Counted from the first letter of the stretch, positions 2,292 through 56,530 are shown. The stretch: DNA of 64,000 nucleotides from Candidatus Shapirobacteria bacterium (GCA_022837635.1 JALHFY010000001.1:454512-518511); one strand, 5' to 3'. Notes: generated by a model from the sequence alone, not told the origin. Numbers and translations are program-made.

Positions 2292-2990
2292 TTAGTTAGC
2301 CGAAGAGGTGGCGACGTCAATTTGATTATTTTGAGCCGAGTCGGTGGCAGAGCAAGTTTGGGTGGTGCAGACTAGTTCACCATTTTCTTCACAAGTACAG
2401 GTATTGCAGCCATCGTCAGCTTGGATGGTCTGACCTAAAGCATAACTTTGTTCACCAAATTTACAGTGAACCGAATTGGCTGGTACCGGAGTAACCGATA
2501 AAGCTGGGATGGCTTCCTCTTCAATCACAAGCTGATCTGCACTCTGTTGGCCTTGTAAGAAGGAACGGATGACAAAAAAGAGAACGGCCAAAAAGATGAT
2601 TAAAGAGAAGAAAAAGAGATATTTGAAAAAATTACTTTCTTTTTGGGGAGGATTATTGGGAATTTCGGCAGAAATTGGAGTTTCAGAAGGAGGTTGAATA
2701 TCGACAGGAGGAGCAGGTTCTGGTTGAGATGCTAATTCAGGAGACAAAGGAGAATCAGTAGTAGTGGTTGGAACTGGTTCGGGTGGTAATTCGGACGTTG
2801 GAGCAGGATTGGTAGTGGGGGTGGTTTTTGCTTCGGGAGTAACTTCAGGTTGAGATTCAGTTGGAGCAATAGTTGCTGACTCAGGTACTACTTTGGATTC
2901 GGAGGTAATTTCTGCTTCAGTTTCTTTTAGATCCTGAGAATATTTATTTAAGATGTCTTGATAATTGGGGTCAGTGTTAGTGTTGGTCAT
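2292..2990 (-). CDS. Hypothetical bitopic membrane protein: Pro/Thr/Glu-rich N-terminal region, one TM helix, C-terminal Cys-rich (VWC/EGF-like) module
   Basis: Low-complexity PT/PE-rich segment. TM helix YLFFFSLIIFLAVLFFVIRSF. C-terminus is HCKFGEQSYALGQTIQADDGCNTCTCEENGELVCTTQTC with 8 Cys. Confidence 0.5.
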   Translation of the reverse strand: MTNTNTDPNYQDILNKYSQDLKETEAEITSESKVVPESATIAPTESQPEVTPEAKTTPTTNPAPTSELPPEPVPTTTTDSPLSPELASQPEPAPPVDIQPPSETPISAEIPNNPPQKESNFFKYLFFFSLIIFLAVLFFVIRSFLQGQQSADQLVIEEEAIPALSVTPVPANSVHCKFGEQSYALGQTIQADDGCNTCTCEENGELVCTTQTCSATDSAQNNQIDVATSSAN

Positions 2991-3104: not shown

Positions 3105-4973
3105 ATGAGTTCTTTTAGTAGAATAGTGCGAAGAATATTTTTAGTAACGTTACTGTTGATGATGATTAGCCCGGTACCGGCTCAAGCGGTTAATGATTTT
3201 AGTAATGATTTCAGTGTCGTTGGCTTATATCGTTTAGAGTCGGGTGCCTTAACTACGAACAATTCTCCTGTCGTGGGATGCGGTGGTGCCAATTCACTAA
3301 TTAATTCATCAAATTCTGTTACCGCCAATACTTCAGCTAAAGAGGGTAATTATTCTGGATCTTTTGTTCGAGCTAATAGTGCTTATTTATACCAAGATGA
3401 TGCTAATTTATGTTCCCAATTTCCCGGTAAGTCGGGCACCAGTAACACCAGCTTCGCCATCTCAATGTGGTTTAAACTTAACTCCCTACCTTATCCAAGC
3501 GTTTACACATTAATATCAAAGGGTAGTCCTGGACAAAGATCATTCCTTTTAAGATATGACGGTGACGGCTTAGTCATGTATATCGGATCTGAGAATCGTA
3601 ATATCGGTTCAGTTGCTCTTTCTACAGATAATTGGTATCACTTGGGTTTGAGTTACAATGCTTCAAACAAATCTTTGATTAGCAAGCTGGTTCAAGAAGA
3701 TGGCACGGTCATAGCGAACGCGTCTATAACATATAATACGACTATGTCTCCACAGACTGGACCCTTTGCCATTGGCTCAGCCTATAATGGTGTTTCATTT
3801 AATGATTTTTTTGATGGTTTGATGGATGAGGTGGTGATTTTCAATACACCCAAAACCATCGCGGATTTTGATAATATCCGCAAGGGAAACTACGTGGCAC
3901 TTAATCCTCCCACACTTTCCAGTCCCATTAATGGGTCTAGCTCTGTGGCTACGGATACCGATTTAAGCTGGACTGACACCAACACCGACCCCAATGAAAC
4001 CGGTTATTCTGTTTGTATTGGCACTTCAAATACCTCTCCTCCGGCCAATTGTACTACCACTGCGGTTGGTACCACTTCAGTGTCAGCAGCTACAGCTTTG
4101 GGTTCCGCATTGAGTGAGGGGGCCACATATTATTGGACTGTTAGAGCATTGGGAGACAATTCGATTATTGCTGACAGTTCTTATGCCGACAATTACAGCT
4201 TTTCTACTACCGCACCACCAACTCCGACTCCGACTCCTACCCCAACCCCGACGCCAACCCCGACTCCCACTCCCACTCCTACACCAACTCCGACACCAAC
4301 TCCAGTTCCACCAACCTCAACTCCCACTCCGACGCCGACACCAACTCCGACTCCTATGCCTACCTCAACTCCGACACCCATGCCAACTTCAACCCCAACT
4401 CCGACTCCGACCCAAGCTCCAGTTCATCAGCCTGTAAGTGTGTCTTCACCGCCAAGTTACAGTAGTTTTACCTGTACTGATGCCAGACCTTTGTTTAAGT
4501 CTGATTTATTTCAAATAAATACTACCTATAATTCAGCCAAACTGTTCTTTACTCCACTGGCTGATACCAATCAATATTTCATTAGTTTTTCCACTAATCC
4601 CGATGCTGAGAAACATGGAGAACAAGTTACTCTTCTTAGAGAGGGAGTTCAAAGTCATAGTATTTATTTCTTAAAACCAAATACCACTTACTATGTTAAA
4701 GTCAGGGGTCAAAATGGCTGTGCCACCGGAGATTGGAGTAATATTATGAAATTTAAGACTAATCATCAGGTTTATTACAAAAATTTCCCCGCAGTCAGTG
4801 TCAATACCTCATTGTCTAATTTAGTGACCAAACAACCAAAAATATCGTCCACGACTAAGACTACTCCAACACCCACTGTAGTTGCTCCAAAAGCTACTGC
4901 TGTTCCCACCGCTCCACCACCAATTAAAGATCAGCCGAAACCCAAGAAGTGTTTCCTTTGGTGGTGTTGGTAG
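3105..4973 (+). CDS. Secreted surface protein: signal peptide, LamG/concanavalin-like jelly-roll domain, FN3-like region, long (PT)n linker, C-terminal domain ending in a Lys/Pro-rich stretch then CFLWWCW
   Basis: N-terminal [28 protein letters not shown]. LamG-like ...[13 protein letters not shown]. About 70 residues of PTPTPT. Terminal [11 protein letters not shown]. Confidence 0.7.
4207..4413 (+). repeat. Hexanucleotide-type tandem repeat (ccNacN)n encoding the (Pro-Thr)n linker
   Basis: actccgactccgactcctaccccaaccccgacgccaacccc... Near-perfect 6-nt periodicity over about 200 nt. Explains spurious ORFs 4114..4437(+) and 4193..4381(-). Confidence 0.85.
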
Positions 4974-5038: not shown

Positions 5039-5518
5039 ATGCTTAAGAAGATATTATTGGTAGGAGTAGTCGTAAGTTTATTAATGTCACCGAAGGTTTG
5101 GGCAGGTACTTTTAACCTAAAATCAATCAGTGGAGTCGACACTAGTGGTAAACAATTGTCACATTGGTGGTACACAGACAATAGAGCGGTATTTTCAGGA
5201 GAAGCGGTAGCTGGAAGTAGTGTGGAAGTTGAGGTAGATGGTCAAACCAGTAGTACTACTGCCGATGGTGAGGGTAATTGGAGTGCGACAATAGATTTAA
5301 GCGAAGGTGATCATACAGTGAAATTAAGCAGTGGCGGGTCAACGATTAACTTTACCCTAACTACAGGGACAAACAATGTTGATTGGGAAGCAGTGGAAGC
5401 AGGAGAGGGAGAAGCCTTGCCAGCAGCCGGTAATACTTGGCCAGGAATAATTTTGTTGATAGGTGGTTTAGTGGGAATTATGATCGGTGGTAAAATGTGG
5501 CGTGTTTGTAAAGCCTAA
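5039..5518 (+). CDS. Small secreted protein with a C-terminal cell-wall sorting signal. Candidate sortase substrate.
   Basis: Signal peptide MLKKILLVGVVVSLLMSPKVWA. C-terminus ...EALPAAGNTWPGIILLIGGLVGIMIGGKMWRVCKA, i.e. LPxxG-type motif, then hydrophobic helix, then basic tail. Confidence 0.5.
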   Translation: MLKKILLVGVVVSLLMSPKVWAGTFNLKSISGVDTSGKQLSHWWYTDNRAVFSGEAVAGSSVEVEVDGQTSSTTADGEGNWSATIDLSEGDHTVKLSSGGSTINFTLTTGTNNVDWEAVEAGEGEALPAAGNTWPGIILLIGGLVGIMIGGKMWRVCKA

Positions 5519-6575
5519 AAAAATCTATCTCAAAACCTTTGGTTGTGCTCAAAATGAGTCTGATTCGGAGCGGATTAAAGCCTTTTACAGCGATAAAGGC
5601 AGTGTGTTTGTCAATGATTGGAAAGAAGCTGAGACAGTGATTATCAACAGTTGTGTAGTCAGAGAATCGGCGGAGAATCGGGTTTACGGATTGATAAATG
5701 AAATAAGAAAATGGGAGTCTGCTTCCGTTAAAACTACAGCGAAAGGAAGAAAAATAATTTTAACTGGGTGTTTAGTACCGATTTCTAAAAAGAAGATTAA
5801 AGGAGTGGATGAAATGTGTCCGGTTAAAGAAATTGGTTTTGATTGGGAACCAGTCAGAAACAAAAACAAAGCGGCTTTGATTACTATCAGTAGCGGTTGT
5901 AATAACTTTTGCAGTTATTGTATAGTCCCCTACTCTCGAGGCCGGGAAATTTCTCGAAGTATGACCGAAATTTTGGCAGAAATTGATCAAGCGATAGACA
6001 GAGGTTTTGAAGAAGTCATGCTGATTGGACAAAATGTAAATTCATATGGAGCTGAGGGTGAGACGGTGGTAAATATGGGAAAAAAGAGAATTAAAAGCGC
6101 TTTTCCGAAACTTTTAGAAGAGGTAGCCAAAAAACCTCTTAAAAAAATCTCTTTTGTGAGCAGTAATCCGTGGGATTTTTCAGATGAATTGATAGAAGTA
6201 ATTGCCAAATATCCCAATATTGATCGTCTATTACATCTTCCTTTTCAATCAGGTGATGATAAAATTTTGCGAAAAATGAACCGAGGTTATACTCAAAAAA
6301 AATATTTGGAACTGGTGAAGAAAATCAAAAAAAAGGTGGATGGGGTGAGGTTCTCTACCGATATTATTATCGGTTTTCCAGGAGAAGATGAAAAAGCTTT
6401 TGAAAATACAGTCAAAGTTTGTCGAGAAGTGGGTTTTGAAATTGCCTATATTAATAAATACTCACCGCGAAGAGGGACAGTTTCAGCCAAACTTTATCCA
6501 GATGATGTGCCTATGGCTGAGAAAAAAAGACGTTGGAAAATTTTGAATGATTTAGTGAATAAGAAATTATCTTAA
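5487..6575 (+). CDS. Radical-SAM methylthiotransferase, MiaB/RimO family (short form, no obvious TRAM domain)
   Basis: KKIYLKTFGCAQNESDSERI (MTTase N-domain). CNNFCSYCIVPYSRGRE (CxxxCxxC radical-SAM cluster motif). Confidence 0.8.
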   Translation: MVKCGVFVKPKKIYLKTFGCAQNESDSERIKAFYSDKGSVFVNDWKEAETVIINSCVVRESAENRVYGLINEIRKWESASVKTTAKGRKIILTGCLVPISKKKIKGVDEMCPVKEIGFDWEPVRNKNKAALITISSGCNNFCSYCIVPYSRGREISRSMTEILAEIDQAIDRGFEEVMLIGQNVNSYGAEGETVVNMGKKRIKSAFPKLLEEVAKKPLKKISFVSSNPWDFSDELIEVIAKYPNIDRLLHLPFQSGDDKILRKMNRGYTQKKYLELVKKIKKKVDGVRFSTDIIIGFPGEDEKAFENTVKVCREVGFEIAYINKYSPRRGTVSAKLYPDDVPMAEKKRRWKILNDLVNKKLS

Positions 6576-7493
6576 ATACTTTTGGACGTTGGTATTGTGT
6601 TCGTCGAGAGTGGTGGCATAGTAGATTTGTCCAGTTCTGTCGTGAATGTAATAGAGATAATCGGTGTTTTTAGGATGATAAGCAGCTATGAGAGAATCTA
6701 AACCGGGATTGCAGATGGGTCGAGGAGGGAGACCGAGATATTTGTAAGTATTAAAAGGAGAATCAAGTTGGAGATCGGCTTTGGAAATAGGTTGCCAATA
6801 TTTTTCTGGATTAGTTAGGGAATCCTTAGCATACTGAACACTGGCATCAATCTGTAAAAGCATATTTTTATCTAAACGATTGAGTATCACTCCGGCAATA
6901 ATCTTTTTTTCGGACAAAGAGCGGCCTTCGCGCTCCAATAGTGAGGCCAAAATTAAAGTTTCATCAGCACTTAAAGTGGAAGTGGAATCAGTGGAAGCTT
7001 GGGCTAATTTTTTAGTAAAATTTTTACTGATTAAATCCAGGATTTCTTGAGAAGTGAAATAAGTGGGTAAAAGATAACTGTCGGGAAAAAGTTTACCTTC
7101 TGAGGTAAAAGCCAATTGAGTAAATTCGGGACTGGGAGTAAATTCTTCAAGACGTTGACCGGGGATGATTTTGAACCAGTAATCAGTGGAACCGCCGTGG
7201 GCTAAAGTATCGATAATTTCAGGAATTTTTTGGGAAGATTGTAAATAAAAGTTGCCAGCCCTAAGTTGAGTATCAAGCTTCAAATATCGACTATAAAGAC
7301 GAAAAATATAACGGTTTTTAATCAGGCCATTTTTTTCAAGTCGAATAGCGACTGAAGCCACAGTTTCACCTGGGTTGACAGTAAAAGCTTTTTTGTCTTG
7401 ATTAGTGCTAGCAGGTTGAGAAGCGTAAACAAAAAAGGCCAAGGAAAAGGTGACTAAGATAACTAAGAGGAAAAATACCAGTTTTTTCATCAA
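6567..7493 (-). CDS. mltG: Endolytic murein transglycosylase MltG (YceG-like)
   Basis: N-terminal TM anchor. FTVNPGETVASVAIRLEKNGLIKNRYIFRLYSRY...LRAGNFYL...LLEREGR are characteristic of the YceG/MltG family. Confidence 0.8.
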   Translation of the reverse strand: MMKKLVFFLLVILVTFSLAFFVYASQPASTNQDKKAFTVNPGETVASVAIRLEKNGLIKNRYIFRLYSRYLKLDTQLRAGNFYLQSSQKIPEIIDTLAHGGSTDYWFKIIPGQRLEEFTPSPEFTQLAFTSEGKLFPDSYLLPTYFTSQEILDLISKNFTKKLAQASTDSTSTLSADETLILASLLEREGRSLSEKKIIAGVILNRLDKNMLLQIDASVQYAKDSLTNPEKYWQPISKADLQLDSPFNTYKYLGLPPRPICNPGLDSLIAAYHPKNTDYLYYIHDRTGQIYYATTLDEHNTNVQKYLR

Positions 7494-7687
7494 ATTTCAT
7501 CAAAAAGAGCTCGGCGATAAGTATCTTTTTTGGTATCGTGAATAAATATCCGACCACAGCGACAAGTGACAGTAACTTGATTGCGGACTAATTTACGGGA
7601 ACCGCGTTTGAGCTCCTCACCACAACCGCCACAACGGCCTTGTGAAATTAACCAAGCTTGAATGGGAGCAATTAGTGATTTAATCAT
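7490..7687 (-). CDS. Small zinc-ribbon protein (CGGCG...CRCG), function unknown
   Basis: 65 aa. Contains CGGCGEELKRG...VTVTCRCGRIF. Translationally coupled between ruvX and mltG. Confidence 0.4.
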   Translation of the reverse strand: MIKSLIAPIQAWLISQGRCGGCGEELKRGSRKLVRNQVTVTCRCGRIFIHDTKKDTYRRALFDEI

Positions 7688-7696
7688 GTTTTGATA

Positions 7697-8068
7697 TTAA
7701 TTTATAACCCGATTCAGGATGATGGCAGCAGCCATAGAATCGATGTGTCGGGAATGTTTTTTGGCTGAATAGAGATTTTTCTTAAACAGGTCTTCAGCCT
7801 CAAGAGTGCTAACCGCCTCTTCGACACTCTCTACAGGTAATTTTACCATGAGAGCCAGTTGGTCAATAAATTTTTGAGTTAGCTTAGCTATTTTACCTTC
7901 AGAGATACCGATATAAATTTTACCAATATGATGGTCTTTTATTATAGTTAGTAAATTATTAAAGAGGTGTTGATCATTTTGAAGAGGAGGCAGGGTAAAA
8001 ATAATCCCCTGTTGGCTATAAGCTAAACCAATTCTTTTAGTACCAAAATCAATGCCTAGATAATTCAT
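7697..8068 (-). CDS. ruvX: Putative pre-16S rRNA nuclease / Holliday-junction resolvase-like YqgF (RuvX)
   Basis: MNYLGIDFGTKRIGLAYSQ... RNase H-like fold N-terminus typical of YqgF/RuvX. About 123 aa. Confidence 0.85.
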   Translation of the reverse strand: MNYLGIDFGTKRIGLAYSQQGIIFTLPPLQNDQHLFNNLLTIIKDHHIGKIYIGISEGKIAKLTQKFIDQLALMVKLPVESVEEAVSTLEAEDLFKKNLYSAKKHSRHIDSMAAAIILNRVIN

Positions 8069-8799
8069 GGGTTGTCGGCAATTTGCGCTTTAACTACTAG
8101 GCGGCGCAAATAAGTACCCGGAGGAGAACAAGTAATTAAAGTCAGGTAACGACCATCAAAACGCTGTTCTAAAACAGAAAGATCGGTAGGCTGGACTTCA
8201 TACATTTCCGAAACTAAATATTTATAACGAACACGGTCATAGTCGACTATAATTTCATCACCTTGTTTAAGTTTATGAAGAGTCGAAAAGATGGTCACAT
8301 AAGATTTAGGATTAAAAAACTGGGGTAAAACAGAGTGACCGAAGATGACCGGAGAACCAAATTGACCAGGCATGGCAGTTTTAGGATATTGAATCAGACT
8401 TTTTTTAAGATCTTCACTACCTAAAACAACTTCAGCGGAATCTATTTTAAGTTTAGGAATAGAAAGACTATAAGAAGCATAGGAGAATGAAGGATTATTA
8501 ACAGTTTTATTGGGGGAGGAATCAGAAGTAGAGATAAACCAATTGGAGAGATTAGTTAAATCAGGAGAATTATCGACAGCTGCTGCTGGATTGTAAAATT
8601 GAGAAGAAAGAGGATTTAGAAGTTGATTAAACTGAGGAGAGTAACCTAACTGAAAATGAAGAATCGGAAAAAGTACTGATAAAAATAGACCAATACCGCC
8701 AATAAAAAGCAAGCTAGCTAACAACCGGCGTTGTTTTTGGCTAAGTTTCTTTTTCAAAGCTGGAGGCTTTGGAGATGATTTAACGTAAAGATAAGCCAT
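8065..8799 (-). CDS. Sortase family transpeptidase (membrane-anchored)
   Basis: N-terminal TM LLASLLFIGGIGLFLSVLF. Catalytic signature ...VIFGHSV... (His), LTLITCSPPGT (TLxTC Cys), YLRRLVV (Arg). Confidence 0.75.
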   Translation of the reverse strand: MAYLYVKSSPKPPALKKKLSQKQRRLLASLLFIGGIGLFLSVLFPILHFQLGYSPQFNQLLNPLSSQFYNPAAAVDNSPDLTNLSNWFISTSDSSPNKTVNNPSFSYASYSLSIPKLKIDSAEVVLGSEDLKKSLIQYPKTAMPGQFGSPVIFGHSVLPQFFNPKSYVTIFSTLHKLKQGDEIIVDYDRVRYKYLVSEMYEVQPTDLSVLEQRFDGRYLTLITCSPPGTYLRRLVVKAQIADNP

Positions 8800-10848
8800 T
8801 TAGAACTGTTGAATAATGGTTATTTTTTCCGGAGAGAGAGGTAAACGTTTCCAAATATTAAAGATAGAAGGGAGAATTTTAATCTCATAATTATAGACTT
8901 GGGGTTGATTTTCAATAATTTTACCGGCATCGCTAATTTTTTGTTTAGTTAAGCGTTGTCGGAGCGGATCTAGATTTAATTTAGGCAAACTTTTACCAGT
9001 AATAGTTAGCTTACCGGTGGATTTTTGAGAAGTATTTTGAGTCGGAGTAAAGGAGAAAGAAAAATCTTTAACTGAGGTAATGGAATTTAAGAAAGCCTGA
9101 TCGTCTTTAAGCAGAGTGTTGATAATTTCCTCATTTTTACTGGGATCAACTTGAAGTAGAGACAGAGTTAAGGTGGCATCAACTTGAAGTTGGTCAGCTT
9201 CTTCTCCGAGTTCCCGATTAAAATCTAACTGTTTTTTATCAATAAAGAGAGTGCCTGGGAGAATACCTTCGAGAGAGGCTTCGGCTTTGATTTTTTCATC
9301 AATACGCTCATCTAGGGAATCAGTCACTCGCTTATTAAGATTAGCCTTGTCAGTTTCAGAAACTACCCGAACCTGACGTTTACTACCACCGGTGATAGGT
9401 GAAGAAGTTTTGGCGTGAAGATTAGAATTTTCTTTGAATGAAAGACGGGCGTCTTGACTTAAGTCATAATCGGAGCCAATATCGGTAGCAATAATATCGG
9501 CTTTGGCCTGACCCATGGTGATGGTGCCAGTGCCAAAATCGATAGTACTAGGAGGAATTTGGGCTGAAGTTAAAAGTTCGTATTGTTTACCGGATTCATG
9601 AAGCAAAAGACTACCTTTGGGTACATTTTGAATTTTATCGCTTTGGTTTAAGACAGTAACTTGACCTTTAGATTTATCACCAGTTTCTTTTTGACCGGTA
9701 GTATCCAAAGAATCGCTAAAATTTAAATTAAGGGTTTTTTTATGAGCCGGAATAGTCTTGTTGCTAAGAGTGTCAGCGTTAGAATCTAGGGTGATATTAA
9801 CATCACGGTTAATTTCTACCGGATTAAAGTTCATAACCACTTCGGCTCGGGTGAGTAAATAAGGTAGGAGTAAAATCAGAGGAGTCAGAGCTAAAGGTAA
9901 CAAAAAAAGCGGATTAAAGGAAAGTTTGGGTAATTTTATGTTTTTAAGGGAAAATTTAGGGAGACTGATTTTGGGGCTGGCTGGAGCTTCCTCAGTTTGG
10001 GGAACAACAAAGCCCAGATCAGCAGGAGCGACTTCAGTTTCAGAGATAGTTAAATTGCTTTCTTCTTCAACAATAGATGTTGTTTCTTCAGGTAGATTTT
10101 CTTCAACTGTTGGTGGTGGTGAAGGAGTTTCATCTGATTGAGCACTGATACTGCGAGTGTAAAGAGCAAAAAGATTGGGAGTGGGATAGGCTTCAACGTC
10201 AGGCAAGTGGAGAAAGGTTTCAATATTTTTTTTACCTATCCATGGGTAATTTTTTAAGTCTTCGATAATAGCATCAGCTATATTGCCAAAAACTAAAATT
10301 CGGGGAGGTAAAGCAGAATCAGTTTGAATGGTCAAGAGAGTATTCTCTAAATCCTGGGGAGTAAAATCAGTAGTTAAAGTTTGGGTCAAACGTTTTTTAA
10401 CTTCACCTAAATAAACTAGAGAAACTGAATATTCCTTTTTACCTAAATGAAGGAGAATAAAAGAAGGCGGAAAGGAGTCTGTTTTACCTAATGCTTCAAT
10501 AAAAGCCTCGTCGTTGCTGATAAAACCCATAGGTTTGAGCTTGAGAGAACGACAGAGATTTTCTAAAAGTTTGAGATAATCTGCGGCAATTTTGCCATCA
10601 CTACCAATCCAAAGAGGAGGCAAAATAAAAGCGGTATCAGCAGGCTCTGCTTCGGGACTGAGGGTAGCTTTATCAGCGGCGGCAGACAAGGAAACGTCGA
10701 CGGAACGCAGAAAAGAATCGGGATCATCGGTGGACCATTCGGTTTCAGGACCAATAGCGATTGGTAAGGAAGTTTGACCTTTTTTAATTAAGGCGACAGA
10801 GAGGGATTCAGGAGTAATGGATACCAACCAATAATAGGACTCAGTCAT
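8800..10848 (-). CDS. Large hypothetical bitopic membrane protein: cytoplasmic N-terminal domain of about 330 aa (possibly actin/FtsA-PilM-like), one TM helix, extracellular C-terminal domain of about 330 aa. Immediately upstream of the sortase.
   Basis: 682 aa. TM LFLLPLALTPLILLLPYLL. No recognisable catalytic motifs. Its stop abuts the sortase start at 8799/8800. Confidence 0.5.
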   Translation of the reverse strand: MTESYYWLVSITPESLSVALIKKGQTSLPIAIGPETEWSTDDPDSFLRSVDVSLSAAADKATLSPEAEPADTAFILPPLWIGSDGKIAADYLKLLENLCRSLKLKPMGFISNDEAFIEALGKTDSFPPSFILLHLGKKEYSVSLVYLGEVKKRLTQTLTTDFTPQDLENTLLTIQTDSALPPRILVFGNIADAIIEDLKNYPWIGKKNIETFLHLPDVEAYPTPNLFALYTRSISAQSDETPSPPPTVEENLPEETTSIVEEESNLTISETEVAPADLGFVVPQTEEAPASPKISLPKFSLKNIKLPKLSFNPLFLLPLALTPLILLLPYLLTRAEVVMNFNPVEINRDVNITLDSNADTLSNKTIPAHKKTLNLNFSDSLDTTGQKETGDKSKGQVTVLNQSDKIQNVPKGSLLLHESGKQYELLTSAQIPPSTIDFGTGTITMGQAKADIIATDIGSDYDLSQDARLSFKENSNLHAKTSSPITGGSKRQVRVVSETDKANLNKRVTDSLDERIDEKIKAEASLEGILPGTLFIDKKQLDFNRELGEEADQLQVDATLTLSLLQVDPSKNEEIINTLLKDDQAFLNSITSVKDFSFSFTPTQNTSQKSTGKLTITGKSLPKLNLDPLRQRLTKQKISDAGKIIENQPQVYNYEIKILPSIFNIWKRLPLSPEKITIIQQF

Positions 10849-12626
10849 TAGTTAAGAATAGCATAAATCCGCCTCTTACCGGATCCAGCCGATTCTTCGC
10901 GAGTGATCTTGAAATTACCTAAAACACGGGTATTTTCAACATGAGGACCAGTACAAATTTCTTTAGAGTAAAAATTGTGAGGACTGCCGATAATATAAAC
11001 GGTAACCATCTCTGGATAACTGTGACCGGCGAGAAAAAGAGCACCTTGAGATTTGGCGTCATCAAAGGAAATAATTTGATGAGTCACTGGTAAGGCGGCC
11101 TTGATTTGATCATTGACTAAAGATTCAATTTGTTGAATTTGATCGGGAGTAATTTTATTAGGATGAGTAAAATCAAAACGAATTCTGTCAGCAGTAATAT
11201 TTGAACCAGCCTGGTGAACATGGTCACCTAAAACTCGACGAAGAGAAGCATGCATTAAATGAGCGGCAGTATGATATTTAATAATAACAGCGGAATGATC
11301 GGCCAAACCAGATTTGAAAGTTCCAGCGGAAAGAGTTTGAGATTGTTTTTGATGCTCAGCTTTAAGACGATTGAATTCATCTAAATCCAAAGAGAGATTG
11401 TGTTTTTGAAGTTCTTCTTGGATTAACTCTAAAGGGAAACCAAAAGATTGATAGAGATCAAAGGCGTCAGTCCCGGACAAACTTTTTTGACGATTGATAA
11501 GTTGAGTGATTTTATTTAGACCTTTGTCCAAAGTGCGACGGAATTTAATTTCCTCAGCTTCTAAAGCAGTCAAAATAGAAGATTGATGTTGGGATAATTC
11601 CGGATAATCACCGGCAAAATTAGAAGCATTATTGATAATGATTTGACCTAAATGAGCACAAAAATTTTGATTAATACTTAACATTTTCCCTTGACGAACA
11701 CTACAGCGAATGAGACGACGGAGAACATAGCCACGATCTTTGTTACTAACCTCAACTCCATCCGCTAAAAGAAAAACAGCAGCTCGGAGATGGTCGGCAA
11801 TAATTCTGAAAGGAATGGGATTATCGGAATATTTTTGAGAGCTGAGAGCTTCGATAGCTTTAATAATCGGCTGAAAAATAGGAGTCAAATAATTGTCAGA
11901 AAGACCTGAAAGAACAGCAGTAGTTCGTTCAACACCCATGCCGGTATCGACGTTGGGAGCAGTTAAGGGTAATAGTTTAGCCTCGGCGGTTTTATTAAAT
12001 TGCATGAAAACGTTATTCCAAATTTCGATGTAGCGACCAGATTGGCAACCAGTCTTAAAATCAATATCGGGCTGGCCAAATTGAGTATCAAAAAAGATTT
12101 CGGTATCAGGACCACAAGGACCGGTGGTACCGGCGGGACCCCACCAATTATCCTCGACTCCTAAGGGGTGAATGTGTTCGGGCGAAATCCCCTGCTCCAG
12201 CCAAAGTTTTCGGGATTCTTCATCTAGGGGAGTATTGGCATCACCGGCAAAAATAGTGACATGGAGATTTTTGGGATTAAGATTAAGTTTCTGAGTAAGA
12301 AATTCAAAAGACCAAGGAATAGATTCTTGTTTGAAATAATCACCTAAGGACCAATTACCAAGCATTTCAAAAAAAGTATGGTGAAAAGTGTCACCAACAC
12401 TATCAATGTCACCAGTACGAATGCATTTTTGAACATTAACCAAACGTTTACCAGCAGGATGGGGTTGTCCAAGAAGATAGGGAACCAGGGGGTGCATGCC
12501 GGCAGAAATAAAAAGAGTGGTGGGGTCATTTTCAGGAATTAAAGAAGCCGAAGGAATTTCGACGTGATTTTTACCGACAAAAAAAGTGATAAAAAGTTCT
12601 TTTAACTCCCGTGCATTCATAGGCAA
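10848..12626 (-). CDS. alaS: Alanine--tRNA ligase (short form: catalytic, tRNA-binding and editing domains; no C-Ala domain)
   Basis: FFVGKNHVEIPSASLIPENDPTTLFISAGM...FHHTFFEMLGNWSLGDYFK (class II AlaRS core). HTAAHLMHASLRRVLGDHVHQAGS (editing-domain HxxxH). 592 aa. Confidence 0.9.
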   Translation of the reverse strand: MPMNARELKELFITFFVGKNHVEIPSASLIPENDPTTLFISAGMHPLVPYLLGQPHPAGKRLVNVQKCIRTGDIDSVGDTFHHTFFEMLGNWSLGDYFKQESIPWSFEFLTQKLNLNPKNLHVTIFAGDANTPLDEESRKLWLEQGISPEHIHPLGVEDNWWGPAGTTGPCGPDTEIFFDTQFGQPDIDFKTGCQSGRYIEIWNNVFMQFNKTAEAKLLPLTAPNVDTGMGVERTTAVLSGLSDNYLTPIFQPIIKAIEALSSQKYSDNPIPFRIIADHLRAAVFLLADGVEVSNKDRGYVLRRLIRCSVRQGKMLSINQNFCAHLGQIIINNASNFAGDYPELSQHQSSILTALEAEEIKFRRTLDKGLNKITQLINRQKSLSGTDAFDLYQSFGFPLELIQEELQKHNLSLDLDEFNRLKAEHQKQSQTLSAGTFKSGLADHSAVIIKYHTAAHLMHASLRRVLGDHVHQAGSNITADRIRFDFTHPNKITPDQIQQIESLVNDQIKAALPVTHQIISFDDAKSQGALFLAGHSYPEMVTVYIIGSPHNFYSKEICTGPHVENTRVLGNFKITREESAGSGKRRIYAILN

Positions 12627-39939: not shown

Positions 39940-40980
39940 TTATCGTAAAATGCGGGCTTTGAGGCGGAGTAGTTTCCAGCGAACTTTATCAACTAAGTTA
40001 TAAAGTCTATAAAGTTTGTCATTGAGAACATAATCAAAACTACCGACATATTGGACCAGATTACCACCATAACCTTGTTTGAAACGATGAAAACCGAAGC
40101 CGGTTTGTGAGGCGTTAGCATCGGGACCAAGACAACCCCACAAGTCAAACTGTTTAAGACCTAAACTTTTCCCATATTTAGCAGCTTCCCACATTAATAA
40201 GTTGGGAGCCATAACTTCTCGATGGAGATCAAGAGAAGCACCATAAGGGTAATAAAGAGTGTCGTCCCATTTGAAAATCATAAAAGCGGCCAAAACTTGA
40301 TTTTGATATTTGGCTAAGAAAATTTCAGCCATACCCATAGGTTTGAGAATAGACCAGAGGGTGCGATGATAAGCTTGAGAGTGAAGATAAAAACCTTGGC
40401 GTTTAGTAGTATCAAATAAAAGTTTGAGATAAATTTCAAAATCAGCATCTTCGGTGGAGTGAGAAATTTGAACGCCGTGACGATTGGCGAGACGAATATT
40501 GTAGCGGGTTTTCGGTGACATAGCCGCTAAAAGCTCGTCTTCACTTTGGCGTAAATCCAGAAGGAAAGTATGGGGATAAAAAGTGACTTTAGGAGAAGAA
40601 AAAAGATGGGGATAATTGACAATAGAGGCTTTGTTTTTAATCAATTGATAACGATTGTCATAAACTTTTTCAACATCATTGGGTTCAAATTTAACGAAAA
40701 TAGCATTTTCTTTTTGAGCTAGTTTTTTAACATTTTCAATCATGTCTTTGTCGATGGCGGGCCCACGTAAAATAGTACCAATGGAAAAATTACTTTTAGG
40801 AAGACTATGAAAAGTGAGAGTATAGCCGGAAATTAATTTTTGTCGATCAAAAACACTCAAACGATAAACTTTATGACCCTGGCTGATCTGAAAATCACCC
40901 CATTCCCAGGTTTGGACAGGATGATTAACAACTCGATTGTAAGCCTCTTTTTCTTCATCATACAAAATTCGAGTAATCAT
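39940..40980 (-). CDS. FemXAB-family aminoacyl-tRNA-dependent peptidoglycan interpeptide-bridge transferase
   Basis: ...VVNHPVQTWEWGDFQ... and overall length and architecture (346 aa, two GNAT-like halves) typical of the FemX/FemAB family. Confidence 0.65.
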   Translation of the reverse strand: MITRILYDEEKEAYNRVVNHPVQTWEWGDFQISQGHKVYRLSVFDRQKLISGYTLTFHSLPKSNFSIGTILRGPAIDKDMIENVKKLAQKENAIFVKFEPNDVEKVYDNRYQLIKNKASIVNYPHLFSSPKVTFYPHTFLLDLRQSEDELLAAMSPKTRYNIRLANRHGVQISHSTEDADFEIYLKLLFDTTKRQGFYLHSQAYHRTLWSILKPMGMAEIFLAKYQNQVLAAFMIFKWDDTLYYPYGASLDLHREVMAPNLLMWEAAKYGKSLGLKQFDLWGCLGPDANASQTGFGFHRFKQGYGGNLVQYVGSFDYVLNDKLYRLYNLVDKVRWKLLRLKARILR

Positions 40981-51373: not shown

Positions 51374-52324
51374 CTACAATAATATCAAAAAGCCAAGGAG
51401 AGTGATGATGCCACCAATGATTCCTAAGAATTGTGATGGGAATTCTACCCCAGATTTAGGCAGAATAATGCGGGTGGGAGTGGGTTCCTCGGCAATAACC
51501 TGAGTGGGTACTGGAGTATTGGTTGGAGGAATTGGGGTATTGGTGGGTTGCGGAGCATTGGTTGGTGGGATAGGTGTGGAAGTTGGTTGAGGTGTATTGG
51601 TTGGAGGCACAGGAGTGGGGGTGGGAGTGTTGGTAGGCACTGGAGTATTGGTGGGTTTGGGGGTAGAAGTTGGTTTAGGAGTAGAAGTTGGGATGGGGGT
51701 ATTGGTAGGTTTGGGAGTAGAAGTTGGGATGGGGGTATTGGTAGGAATAACCGGAGCTGGTTCATAACCAAAAATAATCAACCAGTCATTAAAATCATAA
51801 TCCTGAGTAATATCATCGATGACAGCATCTGCCCAGCATTGGATCTGATGAGGACCATCTGATTCCTGTTGGGCGCGAGTGATTTCATTACTTATAGGGA
51901 TGACTGCATTACCATTTTTGCCACAGGTATTACCTGGGGGATTTGGAGCTACCCAACCATAAGCATCGGCAGGATCTCGACTGGCCCTAACTGATAATTT
52001 GTATGTAGCTGGAACAGAACTAGTGCTGAGTAACTGGGAAAAAACTTTAGTAGAATTGATTAGCATGGGGGAGCTACCAGTATTTACCGAGATGACATCG
52101 TTGGGGTTGGCAGTGTTTTGAAGGCGAATAGTAAAGGAATTATCTGAAATTTTAGCAGTGAAAAACATTTTCACTGATTTATTGGCAGCAAAGGTAACAT
52201 GTGGTGGATCAACTCGACTCCTGTCTATGGCTAAACGACGTCTATCCTGATTTTGTTTAACTAAAAATAAAGCCCCTCCTAGAGAAAATAAAAAGAACAG
52301 AAGACTAAGTATTTTGTATTTCAT
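51374..52324 (-). CDS. Secreted protein with an N-terminal globular domain, a long Pro/Thr-rich repeat linker and a C-terminal hydrophobic anchor
   Basis: Signal peptide MKYKILSLLFFLFSLGGALFLV. ...PTNTPIPTSTPKPTNTPIPTSTPKPTSTPKPT... End ...ILPKSGVEFPSQFLGIIGGIITLLGFLILL. Confidence 0.6.
   Translation of the reverse strand: MKYKILSLLFFLFSLGGALFLVKQNQDRRRLAIDRSRVDPPHVTFAANKSVKMFFTAKISDNSFTIRLQNTANPNDVISVNTGSSPMLINSTKVFSQLLSTSSVPATYKLSVRASRDPADAYGWVAPNPPGNTCGKNGNAVIPISNEITRAQQESDGPHQIQCWADAVIDDITQDYDFNDWLIIFGYEPAPVIPTNTPIPTSTPKPTNTPIPTSTPKPTSTPKPTNTPVPTNTPTPTPVPPTNTPQPTSTPIPPTNAPQPTNTPIPPTNTPVPTQVIAEEPTPTRIILPKSGVEFPSQFLGIIGGIITLLGFLILL
51500..51757 (-). repeat. Degenerate tandem repeats encoding P-T-N-T-P-I/K-P-T-S units, including a perfect 36-nt tandem duplication (about 51681-51752)
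   Basis: gtagaagttgggatgggggtattggtaggtttggga occurs twice in tandem. Explains spurious ORFs 51445..51771(-) and 51548..51862(+). Confidence 0.8.
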
Positions 52325-53583
52325 GGTCGATAGTAATATAAGGATATACCAAATAGGGTCATGGCTGCAACAATTATAATGGCGGTAGGCAAAGAATTAC
52401 CACTTTGGTAAAGAGTAGAGGCGGTGGAAATGTCAGCAGTTTTGACGGTAGGTATCGGTGTAGTTGTTGGACTAGGTGGTGATTGGGTAGGTGTTGGAGT
52501 GAGAGTAGCAATAGGTTGAGTGGGAATTAGAGTGGCTGAAGGTGTAGCTGTAAAAGCAATATTACTATTGTTTTGAGTTTGAGAAGAGACATTAAAATTG
52601 ATACTGATAGTATTTTGGGCATCAGAGATAGAAAGCTGATGATCACCTAAAAACAAATCTGTAGCTGGTGACCAATGCCAGGTGTTATCAGCCGGAACGT
52701 GTACTTGGAAAGCCTGATTATCCAAAACTAAGCGGAGGTTGGTACCAGCGGTGGCTTGACCAAAGATATCCGGCCTGCGAGTAGTGATGGTTTCATTGTT
52801 TTTGGGACTAGTAAGACTAAGTGGTACTGAAATAGTTTGCGAAGAAGGAGTGTTGACAGGTAAAGAAGCTACAGAGCGAGTGGATAAATTTTGTTCAGTT
52901 TGGCCAAAAATAATGTCGGGAACAGGATCATTGTTGTCAGTGGTATTGTTAAGAGAAGTAACTTTGTTTTCTGGAGAATAGACAATAATTTCTTCATCAA
53001 GATTGTTGGGAGGAATAAACCAGTTATTAGTTTTGTCGTTAAAACTGTTGGCAAAGGAAATATTCCATTGACCTTCACGGTTGGTAATGGCTGATAAAGT
53101 TTGGCTACCAGGAATATTCAAGTAAACTATAGCTCCAGGCAAGGGAGTTCGGTCAGGGTTAAGTACCTTACCCCAAGCCAAATTAGAAACAGGCACAGAA
53201 CCAGGTGGTTTGAGACCAGTTTTGAGAGTGTAAGAAGATGAGTTGTAATTTTGTCCGCCTGAAATAATGGTCCATTTGTAAGTAGTGTCAGAGGCTAAAT
53301 TACTAACCTGAAAATAATGTGAAAATTCTGAAGGAGAAATATCAGAAACGATCTGACCATTAACTGAGAGAGTTGACTTACAATTTTTGCCAGTAGTTAG
53401 GAATGAATAATCAAATGATGAGTGAGTTAGATTAGTAAACTGAGGATTGATAGGTTCACAACTAGGGCTAGCATCTGAACGAAGGCTGGTTTTTTTGGTT
53501 GTGAGAAAAACTCCTGCTATCAAAATAATCAGCAGAAAAAAAATTCCTAAAATAGTCGGAAGTGTTTTAACGCCTTTTTTCAA
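52321..53583 (-). CDS. Secreted/anchored surface protein with FN3-like and CarboxypepD_reg/Cna-B-like beta-sandwich domains, a PT-rich segment and a C-terminal TM anchor
   Basis: N-terminal anchor LPTILGIFFLLIILIAGVF. ...WGKVLNPDRTPLPGAIVYLNIPGSQTLSAITNREGQWNISF. C-terminal ...TPTPTQSPPSPTTTPIPT...LPTAIIIVAAMTLFGISLYYYRP. Confidence 0.55.
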   Translation of the reverse strand: MKKGVKTLPTILGIFFLLIILIAGVFLTTKKTSLRSDASPSCEPINPQFTNLTHSSFDYSFLTTGKNCKSTLSVNGQIVSDISPSEFSHYFQVSNLASDTTYKWTIISGGQNYNSSSYTLKTGLKPPGSVPVSNLAWGKVLNPDRTPLPGAIVYLNIPGSQTLSAITNREGQWNISFANSFNDKTNNWFIPPNNLDEEIIVYSPENKVTSLNNTTDNNDPVPDIIFGQTEQNLSTRSVASLPVNTPSSQTISVPLSLTSPKNNETITTRRPDIFGQATAGTNLRLVLDNQAFQVHVPADNTWHWSPATDLFLGDHQLSISDAQNTISINFNVSSQTQNNSNIAFTATPSATLIPTQPIATLTPTPTQSPPSPTTTPIPTVKTADISTASTLYQSGNSLPTAIIIVAAMTLFGISLYYYRP

Positions 53584-53761
53584 TCTGATCTAAAACCTGA
53601 ATATTTAAGTTAGGTGAAACTGTCTTGATAAGACTGTAGTCCTCTTGGTGAGTGGAAGCAGAGATTAAGTTTTCATAACTTTTTTGAACAACGAAGAAAA
53701 AGACAGCAATGCAAGTGAGAAGACTAACAAGAATAAAATAACGAGAAAATTGTTTTTTCAT
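53567..53761 (-). CDS. Small single-TM protein
   Basis: 64 aa. YFILVSLLTCIAVFFFVV. Confidence 0.3.
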   Translation of the reverse strand: MKKQFSRYFILVSLLTCIAVFFFVVQKSYENLISASTHQEDYSLIKTVSPNLNIQVLDQIEKRR

Positions 53762-54342
53762 TTCGGCCAGTAATAAACGTTTAAGGGTAAGGAAAGATTG
53801 ATTTGTTGGCCACTACTACTAGCTTCATCAACAGAAAAACTGAGATTATTTAGATCTAAAAGACGACGGCTTTGAAAGAGCTCAGTTAAAAAAGCCATGG
53901 TAGAAGCAAAAGAACTGTTCTGATTTAAGCTGGCTTTGTAAAAAATTTCCTCTTCAGGTAGGTTATATTGTATTTTATTGAAATAAATTTGGTTTTGGGC
54001 TGCAGCAGAAGTAATCAAGGAATTGAGGTTATAAAAACTGGGGTGACTAGGGAGGCTTTCATCAACCAGAAAATATTTTTCTTGAACTTGAGCAAAAAGA
54101 TCCTGGGCAGCAATAATGTCATCGATTTTTTTACGGAGTTGAACTGTGAGAGTTTTTTTATGGCGAATTTCTCCAACTAATTTGGAAATAGTAAAAAAAG
54201 TTGGTTTGATAGCAAAGAAGATGAAAAAAGTGATTAAAAGAAAGGTACCGCCAATTTCTAAGGATCTAGCAAACTTTTGATCTTCCCGCTTTTTTCGCAG
54301 ATAAGCAAACAAGGGACTAAGGTTAGAAAAACTAGGCTTCAC
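53758..54342 (-). CDS. PilO-like bitopic protein (short N-terminus, TM, coiled coil, C-terminal domain)
   Basis: Architecture only. TM TFLLITFFIFFAIKPTFFTI followed by a coiled-coil. Confidence 0.35.
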   Translation of the reverse strand: MKPSFSNLSPLFAYLRKKREDQKFARSLEIGGTFLLITFFIFFAIKPTFFTISKLVGEIRHKKTLTVQLRKKIDDIIAAQDLFAQVQEKYFLVDESLPSHPSFYNLNSLITSAAAQNQIYFNKIQYNLPEEEIFYKASLNQNSSFASTMAFLTELFQSRRLLDLNNLSFSVDEASSSGQQINLSLPLNVYYWPK

Positions 54343-54898: not shown

Positions 54899-54922
54899 AT
54901 ACTATCAGTATAGACAAAAAAA

Positions 54923-56530
54923 TCAGGAAAAGAAACGTAAGAGACGCTTTAAATAGGACTTAAAATGTTCATATTCAGGAGAGCGTAAAAGCGAGGTAGT
55001 TAAAACAAAGCTACTAAGTCCGAAAATGACGGAAATTGCAAAAATAATGATGACATTGATAGTTCGGCTAGTGTCAAAGACAAAAAGATCTAAAATTCTA
55101 ATAATTATCCAAGCAAAAAAACTACCAACACCGGTAGCTAGAATAATTTTAAGCAAATTAAGATAGCTTCCATGCCAATCATGACCATCAACCCGCTTGA
55201 GAAAAACTATGAAGAGAGTTAAGGATTGAACTAAGTTGGCGCTGGAAGCAGCCACAGCTAAAGCAACGATACCTAAATTGGTAAAACGCAAGAGAAGATA
55301 GCTAAGAATCACGTTGACACTTAATGATAAAGCAGAAATTTTGAAAGGAGTTTTAGTATCGTGAAGGGCATAAAAAGAGCGAATAAGAATCTGAATAACT
55401 ACCTGACAAATAATGGCTGGGGTTAAAAAGGCTAAAGTGCGGGCAGTTAGTAATGTGGCTGACCAAGGGAATTGTTTGCTACCAAAGGCAATACGGACAA
55501 TAGCTAATCGATCAATTAAAGTAATGGCGGCAATAGGTACAGTAATATACAAGCCTTGGAGAATGGCCCTACGGACAGTTTGGCGAAAAAGATTGAGCTG
55601 ATTTTTAGCGACATTTTTGGAAAGAACCGGCAGCGAAGCTTGACCAACAGTAGTCCCAAAGATTCGACTGGGAAGATAAATAAGTTGAAGAGCTAGGTTT
55701 AATAAAGAAAGTGAACCGGCAGTCAAACCTGAAGCAAAAAAGAGGGTAACAGTATTTTCAATTTCAGATAAACCCAAAGAGAGGGTACGAGGAATCATCA
55801 GACGAATAATATCTCTGACACCCTGAAGTTTAAGACTTAAAATTGGACTATAAATAAAACCGGATTTCAAGATGGCGGGAAATTGAATAGCCATGTGAAA
55901 GAAAGCACCAATAACTGCCCCATAAACAACTCCATGAATACCGAAGAGAGGAGCTAAGGTAAAAATACTAATGATAATAGCTAAATTATAAATAATTGGC
56001 GAAAGAGCTGGCAAAATAAAATTTTGTTTAACCTGGAGAATGGCCGTCAAAAAATTACTGATTAAAAAGAAGATTTGAGCTAATAAAAGAATTCTGGTTA
56101 AGTTGGCCATGAGTTTGATCTGTTCAGAACTAAAACCTTTGGCGATAATCTGGGATAAAGGAGTGGCAAAAATAAAGGCAAAAACGGAAATAATGATGAA
56201 AACAACTAAAAGTAAATTAATCACGGCCGAAGCGGTTAAGTAAGCTTCTTTTTTGTTTTTGTGTAAAAGGCCACTAAAAACCGGAATAAAGGAGGCAGAA
56301 AGAGCGCCGGTAACTAAAAGTTTGAAAATGAGATCGGGAATTCTGAAAGCAGCGTTGTAAGCATCCAATTCTAGAACACAACATTTGAAAAAGGCAGAAT
56401 ATAGAAATCGAGTTCTAAGAAAACCTAGTAGGGCAGAAATTAAAAAGGTAATAGCCAAAACCATGGTGGCGGAAAAGATACTTTTTTGGCGCTGAGCCAA
56501 AATGGATTTTAAGTTGAAGTGAAAAGACAT
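54923..56530 (-). CDS. murJ: Lipid II flippase MurJ (MviN, MOP superfamily)
   Basis: ...LGFLRTRFLYSAFF...LDAYNAAFRIPDLIFKLLVTGALSASFIPVFS... 14 TM helices. Confidence 0.85.
   Translation of the reverse strand: MSFHFNLKSILAQRQKSIFSATMVLAITFLISALLGFLRTRFLYSAFFKCCVLELDAYNAAFRIPDLIFKLLVTGALSASFIPVFSGLLHKNKKEAYLTASAVINLLLVVFIIISVFAFIFATPLSQIIAKGFSSEQIKLMANLTRILLLAQIFFLISNFLTAILQVKQNFILPALSPIIYNLAIIISIFTLAPLFGIHGVVYGAVIGAFFHMAIQFPAILKSGFIYSPILSLKLQGVRDIIRLMIPRTLSLGLSEIENTVTLFFASGLTAGSLSLLNLALQLIYLPSRIFGTTVGQASLPVLSKNVAKNQLNLFRQTVRRAILQGLYITVPIAAITLIDRLAIVRIAFGSKQFPWSATLLTARTLAFLTPAIICQVVIQILIRSFYALHDTKTPFKISALSLSVNVILSYLLLRFTNLGIVALAVAASSANLVQSLTLFIVFLKRVDGHDWHGSYLNLLKIILATGVGSFFAWIIIRILDLFVFDTSRTINVIIIFAISVIFGLSSFVLTTSLLRSPEYEHFKSYLKRLLRFFS

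Follow-up and report, generated by a model that had tools for sequence, protein, structure and literature searches.

A sortase and candidate substrates with an LPxxG-type C-terminal signal in a Candidatus Shapirobacteria genome

We analyzed a 64,000-nucleotide stretch of DNA, here called the window, which carries a sortase gene and candidate genes for the substrates of the enzyme. The host is Candidatus Shapirobacteria (Microgenomates, in the candidate phyla radiation, CPR), as judged from the names of the closest homologues and from 80 related genomic loci. The same 80 loci and the window, 81 in total, were used for the comparison of gene order. Together with one step past each edge of the window, about 90 kb of this genome were inspected. 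An earlier note on this DNA had described a sortase-like open reading frame (ORF) and a small secreted protein ending in a possible sorting signal, and both ORFs were found, at 8065-8799 on the minus strand and at 5039-5518 on the plus strand, respectively. The positions of the features are listed in Table 1.

The sortase and its relation to the known classes

The product of the minus-strand ORF matched PF04203 of Pfam over residues 112-239 with a score of 87.4 bits (cut-off, 26.6 bits), and it also matched the generic NCBIfam model sortase_fam (TIGR01076) with 54.2 bits (cut-off, 39.35 bits). In phmmer alignments, the segments FGH155S, TLITC224SPPG, and LRR233LVV lay in register with the catalytic His, Cys, and Arg of 5go6/5go5, which are Streptomyces avermitilis SrtE, and of 4d70, which is annotated as Clostridium perfringens sortase D. 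His155, Cys224, and Arg233 were invariant in 119 homologues. Residues 27-48 (LASLLFIGGIGLFLSVLFPILH) are hydrophobic, and a cytoplasmic segment rich in Lys and Arg lies ahead of them. Thus, the sortase call and the N-terminal membrane anchor described in the earlier note were both borne out, and its reservation that one of the three catalytic residues might be missing on alignment was removed. More than 2,000 homologues of the protein were found. The closest of them are named "sortase [Candidatus Shapirobacteria]", and others belong to Woesebacteria and Patescibacteria.

An AlphaFold2 (AF2) model made from the alignment of 119 sequences had a mean predicted local distance difference test (pLDDT) value of 70.6, and most of the catalytic domain lay between 70 and 90. 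That is, the confidence of the model was moderate; an earlier run with 22 sequences (pLDDT 62) was too poor for use. The comparison of the AF2 model with the PDB by Foldseek gave 135 matches at E<=1e-3, the best 50 of which were all sortases, and the E-values against sortases were 1e-11 to 1e-9. Within the moderate confidence of the model, these results point to the eight-stranded beta-barrel fold of sortases. Judging from the sequence and the model, we consider that the ORF encodes a genuine sortase-family protein with a catalytic triad, for which transpeptidase activity is predicted.

The juxtamembrane linker of the sortase (residues 50-100; 8500-8650, minus strand) was unusually conserved, with invariant P63, L64, D80, W87, and F88. 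It is located outside the catalytic domain and might form a lid or a surface for interactions; its residues 62-106 were modelled at a pLDDT below 50.

A classification of the enzyme by hidden Markov models (HMMs), which the earlier note had proposed, was carried out with the class models of NCBIfam. The scores were 55.6 bits for class E, 53.8 for class C, 51.2 and 47.9 for class D, 24.9 for class F, and 15.9 for class GN, and the models of classes A and B gave no match at E<=0.01. The cut-offs of the class models are 140-166 bits (160 for class E). That is, no cut-off of classes A-F or GN was reached; class E was the best at about one third of its cut-off, and all the classes fell about 100 bits short. 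The classification supported the sortase family and yielded no assignment to a class. When PDB entries were ranked by sequence, class E came before class D and class D before class C, with 5go6 the best at 42.5 bits. In the ranking by structure, classes C, E, D, and A were almost equal, so that the fold search does not separate them, and the top neighbours (5k9a, 4d7w, 8gr6, 2xwg, and 4d70) showed 25-30% identity and a TM-score of about 0.55-0.6 on the target.

Class E sortases (Streptomyces SrtE1 and SrtE2, S. avermitilis SrtE 5go5/5go6, and Thermobifida SrtE) are the actinobacterial housekeeping enzymes for LAxTG proteins. The present enzyme resembles them in its best PDB sequence match and best class HMM, in the arrangement of N-terminal anchor, linker, and catalytic domain, in the spacing of 9 residues from Cys to Arg, and in Tyr138, and it is probably the single housekeeping sortase. 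Tyr138, which is located 17 residues before His155, was invariant and aligned with Y83 of 5go6 (GHY) and F92 of CpSrtD. By this alignment it occupies the position of the class-E beta3/beta4-loop Tyr, which is Tyr229 in SrtE1 and Y83 in SavSrtE (PMC5148588). On the other hand, the enzyme differs from class E not only in the low score but also in its putative substrates. The LAxTG signal was not found among them, since the 81 family tails and the other candidates described below carry Pro (or Tyr) at position 2, and they are LPxxG proteins generally without Thr at position 4. In addition, the host belongs to CPR and not to Actinobacteria, and the gene lies within an alaS-ruvX-mltG block, coupled to a gene for a membrane protein that we call X682.

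The near-equal HMM scores and the top structural neighbours likewise relate the enzyme to classes D (4d70) and C (4d7w, 8gr6, 5k9a, and 2xwg). Assignment to class C, the pilus enzymes, was rejected because the protein has neither a C-terminal membrane helix, ending 11 residues past Arg233, nor a DPF, DPW, or DPY lid motif in its sequence. The neighbours of the gene are alaS, ruvX, and mltG, and there is no pilin gene cluster at the locus, which is also unlike class C. It differs from class D in going without LPxTA-type substrates. Since no class cut-off was reached, since the matches to classes C, D, and E were mixed, and since Tyr138 stands against substrates with Pro at position 2, we treat the sortase, on the evidence of sequence and model, as a putative unclassified clade in the neighbourhood of classes C, D, and E that is typical of Shapirobacteria.

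The C-terminal signal of a small Ig-like protein and of other proteins

The plus-strand ORF encodes a protein of 159 amino acids (aa), which begins with the signal peptide MLKKILLVGVVVSLLMSPKVWA. Its Ig-like domain was weak; the match to Big_13 was 23.5 bits, below the cut-off, and that to Ca_tandemer was also below the cut-off. At the C-terminus, LPAAG (residues 127-131) is followed by the spacer NTWP, by 16 hydrophobic residues (GIILLIGGLVGIMIGG), and by KMWRVCKA. The tripartite layout of pentapeptide, hydrophobic helix, and basic tail that the earlier note had read here was therefore confirmed for residues 127-159, as was the signal peptide in residues 1-22. We found 80 homologues, each of about 160 residues, with identity down to 35%, and the layout and the signal peptide are conserved among them: the alignment of the family shows a conserved n-region, h-region, and AxA-like c-region in the signal peptide, and columns rich in Lys and Arg at positions 151-155.

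The most conserved part besides the sorting motif was the start of the mature protein (residues 23-34; 5105-5140, plus strand), which reads G-x-F-N-L-K-S-I-G and has a SHWWY motif after it. Lys28, the sixth mature residue (FNLKSI), was present in 79 of the 84 family sequences, and the remaining 5 had Thr or Gln. The possibility that the Ig-like protein belongs to the Pam pili of CPR was dismissed, because Pam pilins are two-domain proteins of 39-55 kDa that are joined by donor-strand exchange, with no sortase linked to their assembly (bioRxiv 10.64898/2026.03.03.709456).

The motif [L/I]PxxG was present in all 81 family members (the 80 homologues and the window protein), 28-31 residues from the C-terminus, and was always followed by a hydrophobic stretch and Lys or Arg. 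LPAAG occurred in 43 of them, of which 42 were counted automatically and one, P0168, had been matched automatically to a downstream LPFLG and was reassigned by eye. The other forms were LPTVG (25), LPTAG (5), LPAVG (3), LPATG (2), LPDAG (1), IPAAG (1), and IPVTG (1), and MPTVG, LPASG, LPSAG, and LPVAG were also present in the genomic loci. The automatic count of position 4 (n=81) gave Ala 50, Val 28, and Thr 3, with Ala becoming 51 when P0168 was read by eye; in 39 genomic loci, the same position was Val in 20, Ala in 16, Ser in 2, and Thr in 1. In an alignment of 30 tails with a mean column identity of 47%, Pro, Gly, and a further Pro at +4 were invariant, and Leu was nearly so.

In order to interpret these counts, the background of [L/I/M]PxxG was taken from the protein bodies of the 81 related loci, where it was 2.4e-4 per residue. 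The chance expectation is thus about 0.004 per 17-residue window, and about 0.0004 when the +4 Pro is included. Because about 0.004 was expected and 81 of 81 were observed, the motif is not due to chance. As far as sequence comparison can tell, LPxxG in the 159-aa family is a selected motif of the recognition type rather than a chance match.

Like the LPXTG signal (TIGR01167), the signal described here consists of a pentapeptide, a short spacer, a hydrophobic helix, and a basic tail, occupies about 33 residues, and is borne by a protein with an N-terminal signal peptide; some of its carriers also have the Pro/Thr-rich wall-spanning linker of LPXTG carriers. The two signals differ in that position 4 is normally Ala or Val here and only exceptionally Thr, in the invariant +4 Pro, in the absence of basic residues from some tails, and in that the curated HMM is blind to the present signal. 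That is, the LPXTG_anchor model misses these proteins because position 4 is mostly Ala or Val and Thr is rare. Among the curated models of C-terminal sorting signals (PEP-CTERM, GlyGly-CTERM, etc.), none other than LPXTG_anchor matched the tails, and LPXTG_anchor did so below its threshold. A short spacer before the helix, such as the NTWP of the 159-aa protein, is typical of sortase signals, unlike those of intramembrane proteases (Haft 2023 preprint).

Residues other than Thr at position 4 have been described in staphylococci. LPxAG is found on two SrtA-type surface proteins of S. aureus (PMC3436756), and S. haemolyticus was found to bear both LPxAG and LPxSG proteins (PMC7137321). Such a position 4 therefore has precedent, yet in the sequences compared here it appears to be the rule for a whole lineage. 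We take these minor staphylococcal variants to be of the SasD/SasF type. The earlier note had thought that LPAAG suggests a distinct sortase class or specificity. Since S. aureus SrtA-type proteins already carry LPxAG, the motif by itself is no reason to set up a new class; the failure of the enzyme to reach any class model speaks for the suggestion, which we regard as plausible.

The signal was also found on proteins unrelated to the 159-aa family. In the window, a 316-aa protein begins with a hydrophobic signal, which is followed by a globular domain, a Pro/Thr-rich linker of about 100 aa, the tail RIILPKSGVEFPSQ, and a hydrophobic end. Pro/Thr-rich linkers are of the kind that spans Gram-positive walls. 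The tail of this protein, LPKSG followed by VEFPS, has the form LPKSG-x3-P and then a transmembrane segment, and it was kept in 75%-identical relatives. Two adjacent paralogues of the protein on contig L081 have different N-domains and the same linker and tail. A 420-aa Ig-like protein of the window has a Pro/Thr linker and the tail TLYQSGNSLPTA, followed by a hydrophobic stretch and YYYRP, so that Tyr replaces the Pro of the pentapeptide. Its homologues keep TLY[Q/E]SGNSLPT, and one in the 60% range has TLYESGNSLPTY.

A profile of the 30 tails was searched against 1.84 billion representative proteins, and 13 matches were obtained at E<=1e-3, mostly from the 159-aa family. Two unrelated proteins, P0210 and P0212, were found at E<1e-3. 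P0210 has a Pro/Thr linker and LPSAG, in the context ETLPSAGVGFPT..., and P0212 is a protein of 87 aa with ALPDAGISSPT.... The former is encoded on contig L089, which is syntenic with the MurJ-PilN-like-PilO-like...DUF2298-UvrD-FemAB region of the window, and beside it lies a second small protein ending in SLPEAG, a hydrophobic stretch, and Lys. From a word-indexed set of 5.8 billion, the same profile returned 2 fragments. A scan of 1.26 Mb of syntenic loci showed no further substrates near the sortase, where the Ig-like family stood alone, and one step past each window edge showed no new signal carrier in this genome.

Whether other proteins carry the LPAAG-type signal, which the earlier note had left to be checked, can thus be answered affirmatively from the 316-aa protein (LPKSG), P0210 (LPSAG), P0212 (LPDAG), and the second small protein of L089 (LPEAG). 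Because the same motif with the +4 Pro occurs on unrelated proteins, we regard the signal, by its distribution over these sequences, as a putative portable C-terminal module with the consensus [L/I/M]-P-x-[A/V/S/T]-G, usually followed by x3-P-[T/G/S].

Two groundwater contigs, L085 (7104-8063) and L088 (1835-2629), contain a neighbour gene whose product ends in LPETG-ILDFPG and a hydrophobic tail, and which adjoins distant homologues of the globular domain of the 316-aa protein. From the canonical LPETG tail of these carriers, it follows that Thr versions of the extended signal exist in other uncultured lineages.

Both the window (51374-56530) and L089 (3495-12132) also show MurJ followed by PilN-like and PilO-like proteins and then by variable secreted proteins with Pro/Thr linkers and LPxxG-type tails. 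Several of the secreted proteins at the MurJ-PilN-like cluster have in common a hydrophobic segment at the N-terminus whose last residues are LFLV(K/E)QNQD. The presence of this arrangement in an unrelated contig as well suggests a hot spot of surface proteins or a dedicated export and assembly cluster.

Gene neighbourhood and other features

The order alaS, X682, sortase, ruvX, a small zinc-ribbon ORF, and mltG was essentially invariant in the 80 related loci. That is, the ancient alaS-ruvX-mltG cluster (6567-12626 in the window; L001-L080) is conserved in Shapirobacteria, but alaS and ruvX are separated by X682 and the sortase. The zinc-ribbon ORF (7490-7687) encodes 65 aa with CxxC...CxC and was located between ruvX and mltG in 76 of the 81 loci. 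A MiaB-like radical-SAM gene came next in 64 loci, and 38 of the 64 loci that reach this far had the Ig-like gene beside it.

X682 preceded the sortase in 79 of the 81 loci. The gap between the two genes was -4 to +5 nucleotides in 74 of the 79, with an overlap of 4 nucleotides in 39. The N-terminal half of the protein is cytoplasmic, a single membrane helix follows, and the other half is extracellular; around residues 390-465, the extracellular part showed weak similarity to Baseplate_J and phrog_6. No match to Pfam, NCBIfam, or the PDB was obtained, either with the single sequence or with a profile of 37 sequences. From the gene spacing, X682 appears to be translationally coupled to the sortase, an association tighter than that of the Ig-like gene, and it may be an accessory factor of the sortase.

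Several other observations were made in the window. A 622-aa LamG/fn3 protein (3105-4973, plus strand) has long Pro-Thr repeats (repetitive DNA at about 4110-4440) and an odd C-terminus with a Cys-containing tag and no hydrophobic helix; its gene was present only in this strain among the 81 loci and was truncated in the near-identical strain L092. A 232-aa protein (2292-2990, minus strand) has an N-half rich in Pro, Thr, and Glu, a central transmembrane helix, and a C-terminal Cys-rich module that is pacifastin- or VWC-like, an unusual domain for a bacterium. Over nearly all of the window the GC skew (strand asymmetry of G and C) was positive, with values per 2 kb of up to 0.29, and the minus strand carries almost all of the genes. 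This asymmetry in strand composition is strong and is similar to the one described for a different Microgenomates genome (PMC7143001).

Table 1. Positions in the window of the sortase, the candidate substrates, and related features
Feature	Position	Strand	Basis
Sortase gene, 244 aa, type II membrane topology	8065..8799	-	Pfam, NCBIfam, homologues, AF2/Foldseek
Sortase N-terminal transmembrane anchor, residues 27-48, LASLLFIGGIGLFLSVLFPILH	8656..8721	-	Sequence; AF2 helix with pLDDT 85-95
Sortase catalytic domain, residues 112-239	8083..8466	-	HMM alignments to 5go6 and 4d70
Sortase catalytic codons	His155 8335-8337; Cys224 8128-8130; Arg233 8101-8103	-	Codons checked
Sortase Tyr138 codon, putative position of the class-E beta3/beta4-loop Tyr	8386-8388	-	Alignment and PMC5148588
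Candidate substrate, 159-aa secreted protein with a single Ig-like domain and, at its C-terminus, a sorting signal	5039..5518	+	ORF, weak Ig-like matches, 80 homologues
Sec-type signal peptide of the 159-aa protein, residues 1-22, ...VWA/G	5039..5104	+	Read from the sequence
LPAAG pentapeptide of the 159-aa protein, residues 127-131, then NTWP (Pro135 = +4 Pro)	5417..5431	+	Motif counts
Hydrophobic segment GIILLIGGLVGIMIGG (5444-5491) and basic tail KMWRVCKA (5492-5515) of the 159-aa protein	5444..5515	+	Sequence
Second candidate substrate, 316 aa	51374..52324 (LPKSG 51449-51463)	-	Tail sequence, LPXTG_anchor 11.7 bits, relatives
Possible third substrate, 420-aa Ig-like (Big_13) protein	52321..53583 (LYQSG 52399-52413)	-	Tail, homologues
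X682, 682-aa membrane protein	8800..10848	-	Directly upstream of the sortase, synteny
FemAB-family peptidyltransferase	39940..40980	-	Pfam FemAB 128.1 bits
MurJ lipid II flippase, context of peptidoglycan synthesis	54923..56530	-	Pfam MurJ 247 bits
YceG/MltG-family protein, context of peptidoglycan strand termination	6567..7493	-	Pfam YceG 229 bits; same conserved block as the sortase

Interpretation and significance

Taken together, we think it probable that the window encodes a housekeeping sortase and at least two likely substrates, which would be cleaved and attached to peptidoglycan. What the analysis shows is the enzyme family, the catalytic residues, how the signal is laid out, that its motif is conserved, and that the motif recurs on unrelated proteins. 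We infer that this sortase acts on these tails, and we propose a cleavage site and an acceptor, by analogy with characterized sortases, in the following way. The 159-aa protein would be exported by Sec, its signal peptide being removed after VWA22, and the hydrophobic segment and basic tail at its C-terminus would retain the pre-protein in the membrane. The membrane-anchored sortase would then recognize [L/I]-P-x-[A/V/S/T]-G, possibly with the downstream +4 Pro, and Cys224 would attack the bond between position 4 (Ala130) and Gly131. An amine of lipid II or peptidoglycan, probably on a side chain made by the FemAB-family enzyme, would then resolve the thioacyl intermediate. The product would be a single Ig-like domain of 108 residues covalently fixed to the wall, and the 316-aa LPKSG protein with its Pro/Thr wall-spanning linker may be handled likewise.

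The FemXAB transferase, MurJ, and MltG named in the earlier note were all confirmed by Pfam (Table 1). The FemAB-family enzyme probably synthesizes the peptidoglycan side chain or bridge, which would act as the nucleophile, and the three proteins are consistent with a peptidoglycan wall bearing side chains usable as acceptor. The earlier note had gone on to a Gram-positive-type wall with covalently anchored proteins. The FemAB and peptidoglycan genes agree with this view, and the cleavage and attachment belong to its presumed part.

Several points weigh against the proposal that the sortase attaches these proteins to the wall. Ala or Val takes up more than 90% of position 4 in the 159-aa family and Thr only 3 of 81, and to our knowledge the acyl donor is Thr in all characterized sortase classes. 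The curated LPXTG_anchor model (TIGR01167; cut-off, 15.9 bits) had no match for the 159-aa protein and three homologues even at E<=10, and it gave the 316-aa protein 11.7 bits, below that cut-off. The 316-aa protein and P0210 are without a basic tail. The earlier note had emphasized a nearby substrate, and the two genes are indeed 2.5 kb apart; such proximity is weak evidence of a functional link because gene order is conserved around a housekeeping block, and about 40% of the relatives lack the Ig-like gene at that place. The comparison of sortase residues with motif variants in 39 pairs gave no informative covariation, and only hypervariable linker columns stood out. The computations gave no direct sign of cleavage, and the number of substrates and the presence of other sorting enzymes were judged from about 90 kb of this genome.

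Some of these points would also fit a reading in which a type I membrane protein stays uncleaved and permanently anchored by its C-terminal segment, with LPxxG-x3-P as a conserved structural hinge where the chain meets the membrane surface, and with the sortase acting on other, unseen substrates. The hydrophobic segment has sufficient length for a helix, two of the carriers go without the basic tail, Thr is nearly absent from position 4, and the LPXTG_anchor HMM is not satisfied. We nevertheless consider a permanent anchor unlikely. The pentapeptide with the +4 Pro recurs on otherwise unrelated proteins, which is the hallmark of a recognition signal; Pro and Gly are invariant and Leu nearly so while the helix drifts, and the sortase is universal in the lineage. 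Processing of the tails by an enzyme other than a sortase that is encoded elsewhere, such as an exosortase or archaeosortase, a rhombosortase, or another intramembrane protease, seems highly improbable to us. Tripartite C-terminal signals are common to several unrelated sorting systems, and about 90 kb of the genome is visible; yet no curated PEP-CTERM, GlyGly-CTERM, or other such model matched, the tails look like LPxTG signals with a spacer before the helix, unlike the signals of intramembrane enzymes, and the annotated ORFs of the window include no candidate multi-pass protease.

The sortase might also be a pilus polymerase of the class C type that joins the Ig-like protein head-to-tail via K28, so that a fibre or surface coat would be formed instead of, or before, wall anchoring. 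The top Foldseek matches were the class C pilus sortases 5k9a, 4d7w, and 2xwg, although classes C, D, and E match almost equally. The widely conserved K28 lies inside the most conserved N-terminal motif, but it is not invariant, and neither a pilin motif of the WxxxVxVYPK type nor a DP[F/W/Y] lid is present. An Ig-like domain is found in Gram-positive pilins as well as in the substrate here. The invariant D80, W87, and F88 of the sortase linker could act as a lid; against this, the region was modelled at a pLDDT below 50. Since the sortase also goes without the C-terminal membrane helix and its gene is in a housekeeping operon and not in a pilin island, we regard a pilus polymerase as very unlikely. 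A bolder possibility, which we hold to be quite unlikely, is that the sortase and X682 form a distinct class with its own signal, [L/I]P-x-[A/V]-G-x3-P, and a non-Thr acyl donor, perhaps with the abundant and very small Ig-like protein as the unit, joined via K28 or to the wall, of a covalent surface layer or fibre for episymbiotic attachment.

In comparison with these alternatives, the wall-anchoring sortase that we favor belongs to a standard system of sortase and sorting signal with a lineage-specific signal, which is incremental on established biology and brings no new principle. According to Meheust et al. 2019 (PMC6744442), a CPR sortase family, fam000526, occurs in over half of the CPR genomes and is almost ubiquitous in Microgenomates. 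The window sortase is very probably of the same family, and its homologues likewise come from Shapirobacteria, Woesebacteria, and Patescibacteria. That report described presence alone, unlike the present analysis, and gave no substrate, motif, or operon partner; in the literature we found, no paper names any of these for a CPR or Microgenomates sortase. What is new here is the substrate family, the Thr-poor and Pro-extended motif, an enzyme outside the curated classes, and the tightly coupled X682, which we flag as a candidate accessory factor.

The CPR bacteria (Patescibacteria), which live attached to other cells, account for a large part of bacterial diversity. Very little is known about their surface biology, and most of the proteins that they secrete carry the annotation "hypothetical". 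The signal [L/I]P-x-[A/V/S/T]-G-x3-P with its helix, which the LPXTG model misses, would allow the wall-anchored surface proteome of these organisms to be predicted from metagenomes. It would also supply a concrete peptide for a sortase whose acyl donor may be Ala or Val, which is relevant to sortase-mediated ligation.

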